From: Eledone cirrhosa
Lineage: Eukaryota
Direction: 5' to 3'
Length of the DNA stretch: 64,000 bases
Assembly (NCBI GenBank): GCA_964016885.1
Contig: OZ024741.1
Coordinates: 70,308,001-70,372,000 of the forward strand
Shown here: positions 3,225 through 56,440 of the stretch, piece by piece
Layout: every line of letters begins with the position of its first letter
Position numbering within the stretch: position 1 is the first letter of the stretch
Translations under genes and position numbers: made by a program
Notes under the pieces: model-generated
Database searches by the model: none
What the model was told of the DNA's origin: nothing
The model's input: the letters and a program-made list of their open reading frames with translations, nothing else

Positions 3225-3618
3225 TATATATTGGTAAACGGAATAGAAAATGCTGACAAATTGTTCACAGTTGAAAAATGGTTTAATTAGGAATAAAAGA
3301 GTATTAGTGATTGTATGGGTTAGTATTCAGTTGTGGTTTTAAGTTTTTAAGTTTTTACCGGTTGCGCATTTCTAAATGCTTTTCAAAAATAATTTTGAGA
3401 TAGAGTGTCCGTGCTGTTTGCTCTGATCAGAGCAAACAGCACGGACACTCTATCTCAAAATTATTTTTGAAAAGCATTTAGAAATGCGCAACCGGTAAAA
3501 ACTTAAAAACTTAAAACCACAACTGAATACTAACCCATACAATCACTAATACTCTTTTATTCCTAATTAAACCATTTTTCAACTGTGAACAATTTGTCAG
3601 CATTTTCTATTCCGTTTA

Positions 3619-8702: not shown

Positions 8703-9890
8703 TAAATATGGTGATAATGGGGCTGCGGCGTTGCAAATGGGATACATATGAAAAAGTGAGTCCTCATCAGTGACCATCCAACCGTCCTCGGCATTTCATC
8801 GCTTTAAGGGCCATATGCCTCAGGTTGGTGCGAACAACGGCTAAAAAAAGTCGTTGGGACACGTAAATAAAGGGGGACATTAGAGTAACAAACAAAAGGG
8901 TTATAGCAACGGAAAGTGAGTAGAAATAGACAAGTCCCAGATCTCTATGAATATAAACTCTGTGAAATCGTGAACAAGAGACGAAAGACGATCGAACCTG
9001 GTAGAAATGTGAGCAAGGAAAGAATTTCGCCCAAGTTCGACAGGGGGGGAAAAAGGAGAGAGAGAGAGAGAACGAAAACTGGTCTACGAATGGTAAACGC
9101 AAGTTTTGTGAAGTCGCAGACGAAAGAGAGAGAGAAAAAAAATTATTACCAGCTCGGTCAAGACTGCGCGAGGAAAGAATTACACACAGGTCAAACTTGA
9201 AGGAGGAGGAGGAAAGAGGAGGAGGAGAGGTAGTGACAGAGAATGAGTGAGTGAAAGTTGAGGAGAGGGTAACAGAGAGGAGACTGCTAAAGTGGTAGAG
9301 ATACAAGGAACGAATGCCTGTCTGTTTCGTTCCTTGTATCTCTACCACTTTAGCAGTCTCCTCTCTGTTACCCTCTCCTCAACTTTCACTCACTCATTCT
9401 CTGTCACTACCTCTCCTCCTCCTCTTTCCTCCTCCTCCTTCAAGTTTGACCTGTGTGTAATTCTTTCCTCGCGCAGTCTTGACCGAGCTGGTAATAATTT
9501 TTTTTCTCTCTCTCTTTCGTCTGCGACTTCACAAAACTTGCGTTTACCATTCGTAGACCAGTTTTCGTTCTCTCTCTCTCTCCCTTTTCCCCCCTGTCGA
9601 ACTTGGGCGAAATTCTTTCCTTGCTCACATTTCTACCAGGTTCGATCGTCTTTCGTCTCTTGTTCACGATTTCACAGAGTTTATATTCATAGAGATCTGG
9701 GACTTGTCTATTTCTACTCACTTTCCGTTGCTATAACCCTTTTGTTGTTACTCTAATGTCCCCCTTTATTTACGTGTCCCAACGACTTTTTTTAGCCGTT
9801 GTTCGCACCAACCTGAGGCATATGGCCCTTAAAGCGATGAAATGCCGAGGACGGTTGGAGGGTCACTGATGAGGACTCACTTTTTCATAT
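8703..9890. mobile_element. Large fold-back element with about 570-bp arms and an 11-nt loop, bearing a permuted hammerhead-like motif
   Basis: 8746-9314 is the reverse complement of 9326-9890. (TA)n lies on both sides. Homologues at 39343-39995 and 56036-56405. Confidence 0.85.
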
Positions 9891-10628
9891 ATATATATAT
9901 ATATATATACATATCAAAGATTTTTAAACGCGTGTGACACAAATTTTTACAATGTTTTTAGAAAAATTATTTTTACAAATATTTACAAACAAAGTGCAGT
10001 TTGTATTACAATCGGAACTCTGCCTATACTCGATTGCAATATATAAAGAGGAACAAGATACAAAGATATATTTCTTTATTTGGCACAAGGGCACACAAAA
10101 ATGGGACATTACAGAACATGAATATACGCTATTTTGAAGTGTTTAAACATTTTTTACAAACAAAAATTTTAAAATATTTGTACAAACTTTTACGATAGAC
10201 TTTCATCTTATCTATTGACCGCCTAACCCTAACCCTAACGTCAATATATTACATTTGTTTTAAAAATAGTTAATATAAATTTTAAAAAATCATATAACGA
10301 CGAAATAACAAAAATAAATGAACTAGGAAAACAAATAAAAAAACATGGCGGATGCTTTTGAGCAACACTTACTCTGATTGGTTGAAAATTAGCCAATGGC
10401 ATGTAATCACCACGGCCACGGTCAGACCTTGAAAAAAAAATTGACGATCTACACATATATGTTAGAACACTAAAGTGACTTAAACATTCTGCTGTTAGTC
10501 ACTTCGTGTCTAACAGATATATGTATATATATATGATATATATATATGTATATATATCATATAATATATATATATGTATGTATGTATATGTATATATCAT
10601 GTACATATATATATATTTATATGTATGT

Positions 10629-15404: not shown

Positions 15405-17070
15405 TTGGTGTCCGGAAAGGTAGATCCACAACATCTCACCTTGCTTTATGTAGAATTATCGAGGAGCTTAAGAATTATAAAAGGAAGCAGTTCTAACTTC
15501 TATTGATTTCCGTAAAGCCTTTGATTCAGTTGATCCTACCAAACCTTTCCTGATTCTTGAAGCTTATGGAATTCCTCGGGATGTAGTTGCTATTATTCAT
15601 GTCATGTATGAGAACAATTTATGTGGTGTTGCCCTTACACCTGAAGAAGAAACCAACATGTTTACAATCGATACAGGCGTTTTGCAGGGTGATCCTCTTG
15701 TTCCGCTCCTTTTTTATATGTTTGGACTATGACCTTCGCATTGCCATCACAGATACTGACGGTATAACCACCAGTCGCCCTCATCAAGCTATTGTGTTCC
15801 AAGACCTTGACTATGAAGATGACATCGTTCTTCTGGAAGATACCATTGGAGCAGCTCAGGACCTCCTCCAGCATATCATGACTGTCTGCCAAGAGGTGGG
15901 TTTGTTTCTCAATGCCTCAAAAACTAATTTCATGCATTTGAATCCATCCATTCCCAGTTCGCTACATGGTTCTGACGGTTCCCCTATCGAACTAGTTCAA
16001 GAATTTAAATATCTGGGTAGTTACACTAACTCTGAGCACGATATGACCACCAGATTTGCTCAAGCATGAAGTGCAATAAATTCACTACAAAAAGTCTGGA
16101 AAGCTCCCATCCCAAGATCTAAGAAGTGCAAAATCTTCAAAGCTATGGTCGAAACCATCTTACTGTATGGTTCAGAATCCTAGACTCTCAAGGAGACTTG
16201 ATGGTTCCTATACCTCGATGTTACATTTGGTGTTCAAAATTTCGTGACAAAGTCACACTTCCAACAAAATTTCGTGACAAAGTCACACTTCCAACAAAAT
16301 TTCCCTGACAAAGTCACACTTCCAACAAAATTTCGTGACAAAGTCACACTTCCAACAAAATTTCGTGACAAAGTCACACTTCCAACAAAATTTCCTGACA
16401 AAGTCACACTTCCAACAAAATTTCGTGACAAAGTCACACTTCCAACAAAATTTCCTGACAAAGTCACACTTCCAACAAAATTTCGTGACAAAGTCACACT
16501 TCCAACAAAATTTCCTGACAAAGTCACACTTCCAACAAAATTTCCTGACAAAGTCACACTTCCAACAAAATTTCCTGACAAAGTCACACTTCCAACAAAA
16601 TTTCCTGATAAAGTCACACTTCCAACAAAATTTCCTGACAAAGTAACACTTCCAACAAAATTTCCTGACAAAGTCACACTTCCTACAAAATTTCCTGACA
16701 AAGTCACACTTCCAACAAAATTTCGTGACAAAGTCACACTTCCAACAAAATTTCCTGACAAAGTAACACTTCCAACAAAATTTCCTGACAAAGTCACACT
16801 TCCAACAAAATTTCCTGACAAAGTCACACTTCCAACAAAATTTCCTGACAAAGTCACACTTCCAACAAAATTTCCTGACAAAGTCACACTTCCAACAAAA
16901 TTTCCTGACAAAGTCACACTGCTATGAATTTCATCGAAAGTCAATCCCGTCGTTAGGCTCTTGCTGGTCATGTTTCCTGCCATGATTAACCTGCATGCAA
17001 AGCACCGAATAGTACTCACTGGCCTCACTGGACGGGATCTTCTTACGGTGATGAGAAAGTGGGAAGTCTG
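15405..17070 (+). pseudogene. Degenerate RTE-type LINE reverse transcriptase fragment
   Basis: Remnant motifs FIDFRKAFDSV, G.LQGDPL, LDYEDDIVLL, GLFLNASKT, EFKYLGS, ETILLYGSES, RL.AGHV, with several frameshifts and stops. Confidence 0.85.
16236..16920 (+). repeat. 30-bp minisatellite, about 23 copies, inside the LINE
   Basis: Unit AAAATTTC(C/G)TGACAAAGTCACACTTCCAAC in head-to-tail copies with no spacers. Confidence 0.97.
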
Positions 17071-17167
17071 GAACATGAACTTTGTGCATACTTCACCTTC
17101 GATAGAGAGATGAGTGAAGAAGAAGATTTTATATAGAAATGACTTCTGTGTGTGCGTGTGTGCGTGT

Positions 17168-21125: not shown

Positions 21126-21492
21126 CAAAAGAGTCAGGACTCTGCGTTCAGACCTAGCTGTTTAACGGCCGGAGCTCAGCCGTCGGGGTCCTGACTATTT
21201 TCCTATTACCCACTCTACTACACTAAGTATCTAGTACTCTGGTGCGTTATGGTCCATCTGGTTCCTTACCACAATGCCTTTGTTATATATATATATAACA
21301 AAGGTATTGTGGTAAGGAACCAGATGGACCATAACGCACCAACGTACTCAATACTTAGGGTAGTAGAGTGGGTAATAGGAAAAAGTATAACCCCGACGGC
21401 AGATCTCAAGCCCTTTCGACGGCTATTTCTGGACTAGTCCAGAACTAACCGTCGAAACGGCTTGAGCACTGCCGTCGGGGTCATACTTTTTC

Positions 21493-39342: not shown

Positions 39343-39344
<2 letters not shown>

Positions 39345-39995
39345 GAAGGACTAACTTTATTCATATGTAACCCATTAGCAACCACGCAGCACGTTTATTC
39401 TCATATTTACACATATTTTTTCCCCGCTGTGACCCGTCTATTTCGTTCTTACTGCTTCCTCTTTCTCTGTACCTTTACCCTCTCTAACAGTCACTCTCTC
39501 TGTTAGCCTCTTCCTCACCCTTCACTCACTCACTCTCTGTTACTACCTCTCCTCCTTCTTCCCGTTTGACCTGTGCGTAATTCTTTTCTTTCGCACCCTT
39601 GGTCAGGCAGGTCGCTTTTTTTCTCTCTCTCGTCTACGATTTCACAGAACTTACGTTCACCGAATTCACAGACTAGATCCCTTCTTCCTCCCGTTAGACC
39701 TGTACGGAATTCCTTCCTTGCTCACATTCCAACCAGGTTTGATGGTCTTTATTCTCTCTCGTTCACGATTTCACCGAATTTATGTTCATGGAAATTTGTG
39801 ACTTGACTCCTTCTTCCTCATTTTTCGTTGCTTCACCATCTTTGTTTGTTTACACTCTCGTGTCCCCTTTATTTACGTGTCCCAACGACTTTTTTTAGCC
39901 GTTGCTCGCACCAACCGGAGGTATATGGTCTTTAAAGCGATGAAATACCAATGATGGTTGGAAGATCACTGATGAAGGACTAACTTTATTCATAT
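39343..39995 (+). mobile_element. 629-bp-period element with a terminal direct repeat, same family as 8703-9890
   Basis: ATGAAGGACTAACTTTATTCATAT occurs at 39343 and 39972, with (TA)n on both sides. Confidence 0.8.
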
Positions 39996-40054: not shown

Positions 40055-40098
<44 letters not shown>

Positions 40099-40281
40099 GA
40101 ACCAGTAAGACCCCGACGGCTGAGCTCAAGCCGTTTCGACGGCTAATTCTGAATTAGCCGTCGAAACGGCTTGAGCTCAGCCGTCGGGGTCTTACTGGTT
40201 CCTATTACCCACTCTACTACCCCAAGTATTGAGTACTTTGGTGCGTTATGGTCCTCCTGGTTCCTTACCACATTTCCTTCG

Positions 40282-54635: not shown

Positions 54636-54992
54636 CACTCCACCAGACATGACAACTGCTGCAGACTAGCCAACTGCCCCATCAACGACACAGACCTATG
54701 CCACCAGGCTTACGTCGTATACAGACTAGAGTGTGACAAATGCAACAACTTCTACGTTGGTAGCACCACCAGACCACACCACATAAGAATAAAAGAACAC
54801 CTCAATACTAAAGCTTCCTCATTTAAGAAACACCTAGTTAAATGCAAAAACACCGACAAAACCATAACAGTTAGGATAGAAACTAAGGAAAGAAACCTCT
54901 GCAATCTTAGAATTGAGGAAGCACTAATTATAGACAAAACACAACCACCAATTAATAATAGACTGGAACTCAACACCCAATTTATAACTTGA
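54636..54992 (+). CDS. PLE GIY-YIG endonuclease domain (open frame, 5'-truncated, no start codon)
   Basis: CCRLANCPINDTDLCHQAYVVYRLECDKCNNFYVGSTTRPHHIRIKEHLNTKASSFKKHLVKC...LRIEEALIIDKTQPPINNRLELNTQFIT*. Translated manually and absent from the ORF track. Confidence 0.9.
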   Translation, partial: HSTRHDNCCRLANCPINDTDLCHQAYVVYRLECDKCNNFYVGSTTRPHHIRIKEHLNTKASSFKKHLVKCKNTDKTITVRIETKERNLCNLRIEEALIIDKTQPPINNRLELNTQFIT

Positions 54993-55394
54993 TAGAGTTC
55001 CTAGCCCCATATTTACCCCCCCCCCCCACAAACACACGCGCACGCACACACACACACACACACACGCTTACACATCCACTTATCCCTCTCACACATACGC
55101 ACACAAAACCAGTTCTAACACGAGATAACATCTATCCCCCACATTTACGTATAGACGTATCTTCTCATACTTACACACACACATACTTACACCTTCATGC
55201 ATTCTCCCACACACTTAAACAGGCATGTATAAAAAAACAAAAAAACAAACAAAAACAAACCTTCTTAAAGGGAGACTACTCTTTATCCACCTAATCTTAA
55301 CTCTTTGACATTAGAGATAGAACAGATACTCTATACCATTTCCTGTCAGCATGACTTGGCAAGCTATTTAGAACACTGGTTTGACAGCTTTACT

Positions 55395-55432
55395 TCCCTC
55401 CGAAGAAGAGATATTATCTCGAAAATTTAGGA
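55395..55432 (+). ncRNA. Minimal hammerhead in the pseudo-LTR
   Basis: CCU CCGAAGA A-GAGAU-AUU-AUCUC GAAA AU UU AGG. The mirror copy has CUGCAGA, so the consensus is CUGAAGA. Confidence 0.7.
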
Positions 55433-55609
55433 CATTTAAATAAATCTAAGGTAAAAGACTAATTGTCAACAATATCTTTTGCATTTGCATTCTTTATTCT
55501 ATGTCCATACCTGCATTGTTTTGGCTTTATTATACATATACAAACGTTTATATATATTTATATATATATATATATATTTATATATATTTATATATATGTA
55601 TATATATTT

Positions 55610-55985: not shown

Positions 55986-56035
<50 letters not shown>

Positions 56036-56403
56036 TGTTTCTCCTCTTCTCACTTCACTCCGTTCGCGACGAAATCATTTTCTCTCTCTCACATTTGAAT
56101 TCGCTGCTGAAAGGTCTTTTTTCTAAGCGCTCATATATTCACCTAGCTTATGCTAACAGAATAACTATGAAGCTTGTTCCCTTCCTTCTACGGTTTGCTA
56201 TCCTCTTTGTTGTTATCTTGTCTCACTCGCTTTACGCGTTTTAATTGTCCTAATAACTTAATTTAGTTATTATTGCACCGACGTGAGGTATATGATTTTT
56301 AATGCAATGAAATATCTATGATCGTCGGCAAATCACTGATGAGGGACTTATTTTATTACATGTTATCCATGTGCAACCAGCAGTATTCTTCTCCCCATTT
56401 TTT

Positions 56404-56405
<2 letters not shown>
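56036..56405 (+). mobile_element. Diverged member of the 8703-9890 family
   Basis: Shares GCACC..C.TGAGG.ATATG...ATGAAAT...TCACTGATGAGGGACT...GCAAC. Flanked by (TA)n. Confidence 0.65.

Positions 56406-56440
<35 letters not shown>

Follow-up and report, generated by a model that had tools for sequence, protein, structure and literature searches.

A putative SGC-order hammerhead with split stem II and kinked stem III in a Penelope-like repeat of Eledone cirrhosa

Hammerhead ribozymes of type SGC exist and cleave, at 0.007-0.19 per minute (Eckert 2023, PMC10085705). In that paper they come from metatranscriptomes, none having been found in the genome of a known organism, cleavage of SGC-3 needs stem II, and a joint of the zero-length type is flagged as hard to square with the crystal structure (PMC10085705). 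Non-LTR retrozymes are non-coding tandem repeats with one hammerhead per unit and have been proposed to be non-autonomous Penelope-like derivatives (bioRxiv 10.64898/2026.07.22.740005). Naiads, for their part, have (TA)n targets and occur as partial tandems and as inverted 5'-truncated copies (Craig 2021, PMC8557442). They were described there as being without canonical hammerheads, with nothing beyond 'core' or 'half core' cases, and the cephalopod Naiads as inactive remnants (PMC8557442).

We have analyzed a repeat located in a stretch of 64,000 nucleotides of the Eledone cirrhosa genome (assembly GCA_964016885.1, contig OZ024741.1, positions 70,308,001 to 70,372,000), hereafter the window. 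The original prediction had seen here a hammerhead-like RNA, permuted and conserved, carried by a family of mobile repeats; both the genome counts and the covariation agree with this. It had also assigned the RNA to type II (GSC), which did not stand. The explanation that we favor, and consider probable, is that the RNA of a non-autonomous Penelope-like repeat, probably related to Naiads, forms a hammerhead of SGC order, its stem II split and its stem III kinked, and likely cuts itself after A56292.

The motif and its fold

With a profile of the family exactly four copies of the motif were found in the window, at 56245-56348 (subfamily C), 9775-9874 (subfamily A), 39878-39983 (subfamily B) and, as a mirror, 8762-8861. 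One of them is the mirror motif noticed before, which the profile places on the minus strand; together with its plus-strand partner it belongs to an inverted pair of subfamily A units (8742-9314 and 9326-9894) that are 99% identical. All copies have ATGAAAT 22 nt ahead of CTGATGA, and within the window the GAAA-first order is unique to this family as predicted, the other hammerhead-like cores having CUGANGA before GAAA. These cores of ordinary order (CUGAnGA, then GAAA) were seen in other repeat families at 1648+, 44995+, 48333+, 49019-, 18411-, 30086-, 29079+, 28905-, 52484+ and 423-. Other features of the window are a minisatellite with a 30-nt period (16147-17076) and long perfect or nearly perfect hairpins at 40097-40206, 21225-21356 and 3386-3467, formed by head-to-head inverted repeat fragments, that gave spurious microRNA hits.

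Table 1. Positions of the motif copies and of the parts of copy C in the window
Feature	Position	Strand	Remarks
5'-truncated subfamily C unit	56034..56406	+	flanked by (TA)n runs; full unit ~514 nt
Helix P, 5' strand GTCC	56247..56250	+	partner GGAC 56344-56347 directly 3' of the core; closes the domain
Hairpin H, 8 bp	56251..56272	+	arm of the four-way junction; 6/8 pairs two-sided (21 rows)
Helix Q, 5' strand TTGC	56273..56276	+	partner GCAA 56304-56307 directly 5' of U-GAAA; stands for stem II
Outer stem III, 5' strand CCGACG	56278..56283	+	partner CGTCGG 56323-56328; 5/6 pairs two-sided (21 rows)
K-turn-consensus loop, non-bulged strand TGA	56284..56286	+	opposite 56317-56322: 3-nt bulge TAT, then GAT
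Block S	56287..56299	+	GGTAT (inner stem III, last base U16.1), A17 56292, stem I strand TGATTT(T)
Block G	56304..56316	+	Q strand GCAA, U11.1, GAAA 56309-56312, inner stem III strand ATATC
Block C	56329..56347	+	stem I strand (C)AAATCA, CTGATGA 56336-56342, G10.1, P strand GGAC
Subfamily A motif	9776..9876	+	unit ~642 nt; predicted cut after A9822; without a base at 10.1
Mirror motif	8762..8861	-	inverted subfamily A pair
Subfamily B motif	39879..39980	+	unit ~630-640 nt; predicted cut after A39925
Complete subfamily B insertion	39343..39995	+	partial tandem; 39343-39366 duplicates the 3' end of the motif

Judged from its sequence, the motif is a non-circular SGC permutation, with the order site-GAAA-CUGAUGA and a complete hammerhead core. 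In copy C the inner stem III is formed by GGUAU (56287-56291) and AUAUC (56312-56316), with U16.1-A15.1 as terminal pair, and stem I by UGAUUU and the AAAUCA located just 5' of CUGAUGA. The same stems read GGCAU/AUGCC and UGGCCCU/AGGGUCA in copy A, and GGUAU/AUACC and UGGUCUU/AAGAUCA in copy B. CUGAnGA, GAAA, U16.1-A15.1 and H17 are present in the three plus-strand copies of the window (3/3). The cleavage triplet sits 17 nt 5' of GAAA, with the cut predicted after A56292. The hairpin loop of stem III contains the cut site, one strand of stem I and the GAAA block, while the strand 3' of stem III pairs back into this loop, forming stem I, and is followed by CUGAUGA.

The place usual for stem II is occupied by a four-way junction, in which an upstream strand pairs with the bases before GAAA (helix Q) and with those after CUGAUGA (helix P), hairpin H lying between both. 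Between blocks G and C stem II amounts to one pair at most, 10.1-11.1, which is paired in 14 of the 21 rows of the diverged alignment described below. No helix connects stems I and II at their outer ends, the strand 5' of stem I being that of the outer stem III. In the same 21 rows, 95.2% of the cells of Q are paired (2/4 pairs with two-sided changes) as are 87.7% of those of P, whose outer pair is G-C, U-A or A-U across rows. Outside the inner stem III nests a 6-bp helix, beyond a loop with NGA opposite a 3-nt bulge plus GAY. The three plus-strand copies of the window (3/3) have here the signature of a K-turn, i.e., a 3-nt bulge and then G.A and A.G pairs in tandem, with a stem on either side, following the consensus given in PMC5061560 and PMC2790904. 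Over the 21 rows the non-bulged strand was NGA in 14 and NUA in 7.

By energy folding, hairpin H and the inner and outer stem III were recovered for each of the three copies, and helix P for C and B. Compared with shuffles the nested part alone had z values of -0.9 to -1.9, a slight gain, and the reverse strand of C had -2.5; the G-U pairs within the helices would point to the plus strand. Rfam gave no match to a described ribozyme, with 4 weak hits on copy C and one on copy B, nor was there a ribozyme among the best 150 of the 389 hits of the whole window. A box C/D snoRNA was discarded, the hits on copies C and B being weak, below threshold and probably due to the K-turn letters. Comparison by eye with the consensuses of twister, pistol, hatchet, hairpin and HDV-like ribozymes gave no fit, and these readings were likewise discarded.

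Covariation and the type II reading

We have compared the corrected fold and the type II fold in two alignments. The close one was made of 20 rows picked by eye out of 72 distinct units. Here 96.3% of the cells were paired in the corrected fold and 10/35 pairs showed two-sided changes, a number of pairs reached by 29/500 shuffles, whereas the type II fold had 89.2% of cells paired and 3/21 pairs two-sided, two of the three in the helix that the folds share. The diverged sample was obtained with a core pattern of shorter spacing, which skips subfamilies A-C and yields diverged families (376 genome matches vs. 0 for the control). From the first 100 of these matches listed 20 were taken, and L107 (broken by an inversion), L109 (decayed and Naiad-like) and L115 (5'-truncated) were dropped. 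The remaining 17 rows were aligned with window copies C and B and with L071 and L067, the latter replacing window copy A, which is without base 10.1.

Over these 21 rows the corrected fold had 90.2% of 728 cells paired and 24/35 pairs two-sided, with at least one such pair in every helix, and slid controls gave 32-47%. None of 500 shuffles was as high although, the rows being related by descent, neither this count nor that of the close alignment is a probability. Two-sided changes affected 6/7 pairs of stem I and 3/5 of the inner stem III, and U16.1-A15.1 was present in 20/21 rows. The cleavage triplets were AUA (12 rows), AUC (5), GUA (3) and GCA (1). Weak pairs were the seventh of stem I (5/20) and one of P (13/20), the latter perhaps misregistered within a pyrimidine run. 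For 17 of these rows the core letters were fixed by the search pattern and the invariance of the core is there by construction; the pattern carried no selection for pairing. A descriptor demanding stems I, III and Q was passed by 148/168 core matches from loci L001-L120 (many duplicates), but by 0/120 core matches in viral contigs and 0/43 in metagenome contigs, indicating that the pairings are not a by-product of the pattern. On these sequence comparisons the RNA structure is real and strongly covarying.

A type II (GSC) hammerhead whose loop I forms a pseudoknot with the 5' tail would account for GAAA being ahead of CUGAUGA, but we now regard it as extremely improbable. The whole fold pairs 74.2% of the cells in the 21 rows against 90.2% for the corrected one. 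Its stem I, the hairpin TGAT/ATCA or GAC/GTC, is paired in 50% of the cells, A15.1-U16.1 forms in the type II register in 8/21 rows, and there is no stem II adjoining GAAA. The 6-bp helix that had been taken for the pseudoknot does exist, with its strands spaced by 45 nt (CCGACG/CGTCGG at 56278/56323, CCAACC/GGTTGG at 9808/9853 and 39911/39956), two compensatory changes and covariation, but it is the outer half of stem III and not a pseudoknot. Among the flanking pairings, GGTCTT/AGGACT can be drawn (78.7% paired and 3/6 pairs two-sided in the 21 rows), but none of its pairs changes on both sides in the 20 closer rows and stem I makes better use of its 5' strand; ATATG/CATAT is mismatched in the 8 C-type rows; TTGCAC/GTGCAA is seen, by eye, in subfamily C only. 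Two caveats raised at the time, the absence of U16.1 and the 8 nt between stem II and GAAA, vanish in the corrected fold. The copies that seemed to lack U16.1 are actually young and abundant (see next section), so that the gap was not decay; the stems had been mis-assigned. Besides, the differences among A, B and C are fixed per subfamily and any model has to fit all three.

The carrier repeat and its copies

A 58-nt pattern of the family had 9,218 matches in the genome and a looser core pattern 15,670 (about 16,000 copies), while the reversed controls had 0 in both cases. A query with subfamily C gave 961 candidates, with 40/40 of the matches listed at 100% identity; subfamily B gave 802, again with 40/40 of those listed at 100%, and subfamily A gave 783, the 42 matches listed being at 97-100%. 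By these identities the window copies are members of young, high-copy subfamilies and not decayed relics. Units of different subfamilies are only about 70% alike. Another family, found at L122, L124, L125 and L128 (~1420-1620), has GAAA before CUGAAGA with a GUA site and a hairpin upstream; without a clear K-turn consensus, it looks like a second lineage of SGC order. Among the diverged families we also observed a unit in a short perfect inversion that ends at the region of the predicted cut, with two cores facing outwards (L107:4900-5105), and three motifs spaced by about 5.2 kb (L119 and G000:C1:111937006-111947550), which suggests a larger tandem duplication.

The carrier units are 510-710 nt long, lie within (TA)n and are found single, in head-to-tail arrays or as inverted pairs. 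Arrays of C have a period of 507-519 nt, those of A and B mostly one of 630-706 nt. The 3' terminus was found at TA runs, 115-123 nt past the predicted cut, in 23 C loci out of 24 (the 24th runs off the locus), and in A and B the 3' ends are mostly 14-16 or 53-68 nt beyond the core. The 5' ends of the 24 C loci are scattered, in a set that copies beginning at the cut could not enter, since the query needed sequence at both sides of it. No coding ORF was seen in the units. Non-coding tandem units, a fixed 3' end, a variable 5' end, inverted copies and microsatellite targets are traits of non-autonomous Penelope-like elements, and the anatomy matches the descriptions of such elements and of retrozymes in PMC8557442 and bioRxiv 10.64898/2026.07.22.740005. 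We thus take the carrier, as part of the best explanation, for a non-autonomous Penelope-like tandem repeat.

As for the enzyme, no linked reverse-transcriptase ORF appeared among the ORFs listed for L001-L100, nor for L101-L132. A 603-aa frame with reverse transcriptase and GIY-YIG at L103 was considered as the parent and rejected, being a canonical element with a hammerhead-like core of its own and a separate insertion. The window itself contains the 3' end of a canonical Penelope-like element at 54700-55540 (+), with a C-terminal GIY-YIG-like frame followed by a variant core (CCGAAGA...GAAA, ~55400-55425), and a near-intact relative, with the 603-aa frame, lies at L103. At L002:1-1440 a subfamily C copy is inserted at the end of a tandem array of ~310-nt units that contain CCTGATGA...GAAAC, a repeat of type I and retrozyme-like.

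The sequence of events that we propose starts with the repeat RNA, which by analogy with SGC ribozymes would likely cut itself after A56292. The outer stem III meets stem I without a linker, and the K-turn might fold stem III back and so enable this joint, perhaps assisted by a host protein of the L7Ae family. Tandem transcripts would be cut to unit-length RNA, possibly circularised. Copying would then be due to a Penelope-like reverse transcriptase, most likely a Naiad one, priming on (TA)n DNA at the AT-rich stretch that lies 15-65 nt beyond the core; such priming could produce 3' ends that are constant and 5' ends that vary, as well as the tandems and the inverted pairs. Alternatively, the copier may be a canonical Penelope-like enzyme supplied in trans.

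Two other readings keep most of the structure. The fold may be right but cutting inefficient at present, the motif being kept as a structured 3' signal for the reverse transcriptase or for a K-turn-binding protein. This would suit the split stem II, the 7/21 rows with 10.1-11.1 unpaired, and the insertions that end well beyond the whole motif rather than at the cut. Nor did 5' junctions pile up at the predicted cut among the first 100 of 580 overlapping rows, where TA microhomology blurs the junctions. We nevertheless find this unlikely: the catalytic letters and the NUH triplet have been kept across subfamilies about 70% alike and in the Naiad consensuses read by eye, and H17 is only A or C (G was barred by the pattern in 17 rows). 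The second reading is that the helices form between tandem units or between two molecules, as in a dimer-type hammerhead, instead of in a single-unit pseudoknotted SGC fold. Penelope-associated hammerheads reportedly cleave as dimers, going by the title of a published study. Within arrays, neighboring C units are nearly identical (512-514 matches per unit) and covariation is therefore blind to whether pairing is within or between units. However, the 4-5 nt linker from stem I to Q, the zero-length joint of stem III and stem I and the conserved kink make sense only within one unit, in C and B the predicted fold has P as the closing helix of the domain, and many copies are single units, all of which makes dimers quite unlikely. 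The single-unit, self-cutting hammerhead continues to be our preferred reading.

Naiads, SGC hammerheads and retrozymes

We have looked by eye at the Naiad 3' ends in the part of the supplement of PMC8557442 that was inspected. Those of Naiad_Obim and Naiad_Ovul have P, H, a 5-bp Q abutting GAAA and a K-turn-consensus loop, and their GUA site is accompanied by CUGAUGA and a stem I of 6 bp, all in letters that differ from those of the repeat. In Naiad_Aacu and Naiad_Anas, P has 8 bp and abuts CUGAUGA, H is present, Q has 6 bp, and a GUA site goes with a stem III that is long and bulged. The block order is the same in Naiad_Omin; Naiad-1_Skow has only a degenerate hint, some other Naiad ends have CUGAnGA before GAAA, and in Naiad_Adux no clear motif was seen in the part of the supplement inspected. 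By this visual comparison of consensus sequences the fold appears in several Naiads, including octopus and coral ones, a statement limited to those ends and not extended to all Naiads.

In this genome a YWIPK pattern found one broken Naiad-like remnant, which led to 88 Naiad-like matches, all of them fragments with open frames of at most 233 aa and most with stops, while neither a DKA-motif pattern nor a 22-nt motif of Naiad_Obim had any match in the genome. No intact Naiad was found by these pattern and match searches, only broken remnants. Six of the 20 extended remnants plus L254 cover the 3' region, and a recognisable decayed GAAA...core was seen in L254 only, about 0.5 kb past the reading frame. 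L254 and L280-L299 constitute an old, broken family of Naiad-like reverse transcriptases, whose 233-aa piece has no Pfam hit. Decayed motifs were also present at L109:960-1123 (-), L126, L127, L129 and L130, with a GGTGTC-GAAACC block that matches the published octopus Naiad 3' ends.

If the fold is true, it would be an abundant chromosomal animal example of an SGC-order hammerhead, and stem II between the CUGAUGA and GAAA blocks would no longer be obligatory. Standard descriptors miss the motif because stem II is not between these blocks. It also bears on why Naiads seem to thrive without the hammerhead carried by other Penelope-like elements, and a K-turn in the arm of a natural ribozyme would suggest protein-dependent control of cleavage. 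There is, in our judgement, about an even chance that the new architecture, with its four-way junction for stem II and K-turned stem III, is a hidden clade-wide ribozyme of Naiads, present by the tens of thousands in animal genomes, and that L7Ae-family host proteins might switch its cleavage on. In the literature outside subscription papers and bioRxiv supplements we found Eckert 2023 alone on type-SGC hammerheads and nothing on a K-turn within a ribozyme; the publications on octopus hammerheads include, judging by title, none on this motif. The word 'kink' is nowhere in the accessible text and supplement of Eckert 2023 (PMC10085705), and the available part of the retrozyme preprint (bioRxiv 10.64898/2026.07.22.740005) makes no mention of 'SGC', 'kink' or 'octopus'.

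With the published SGC hammerheads (HRIMA-1 and variants) the motif has in common the block order and full catalytic core, the stem III hairpin whose loop contains a stem I strand and block G, and a linker of only a few nucleotides between stem I and the strand 5' of GAAA; with HRIMA-1 it also shares one extra base after CUGAUGA. In contrast, the published forms have a stem II of 5-6 bp and a separate helix joining stems I and II. The repeat motif is without both, splits stem II into P and Q with H, and continues stem III through the K-turn-consensus loop. Lacking stem II and the stem I-II helix, it is set apart from the published SGC family as a variant.

The plan of tandem, non-coding units with a hammerhead in each is the one known for non-LTR retrozymes. 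These reportedly carry ordinary type I hammerheads, whereas the order found here is SGC and not type I. With the Naiads of PMC8557442 the repeat shares the (TA)n targets, partial tandems and inverted 5'-truncated copies and, by eye, the P-H-Q and SGC layout of the 3' ends of Naiad_Obim, Naiad_Ovul, Naiad_Aacu and Naiad_Anas. It differs in having no ORF, in its units of 510-710 nt and in being young, while the cephalopod Naiads are described as inactive remnants.
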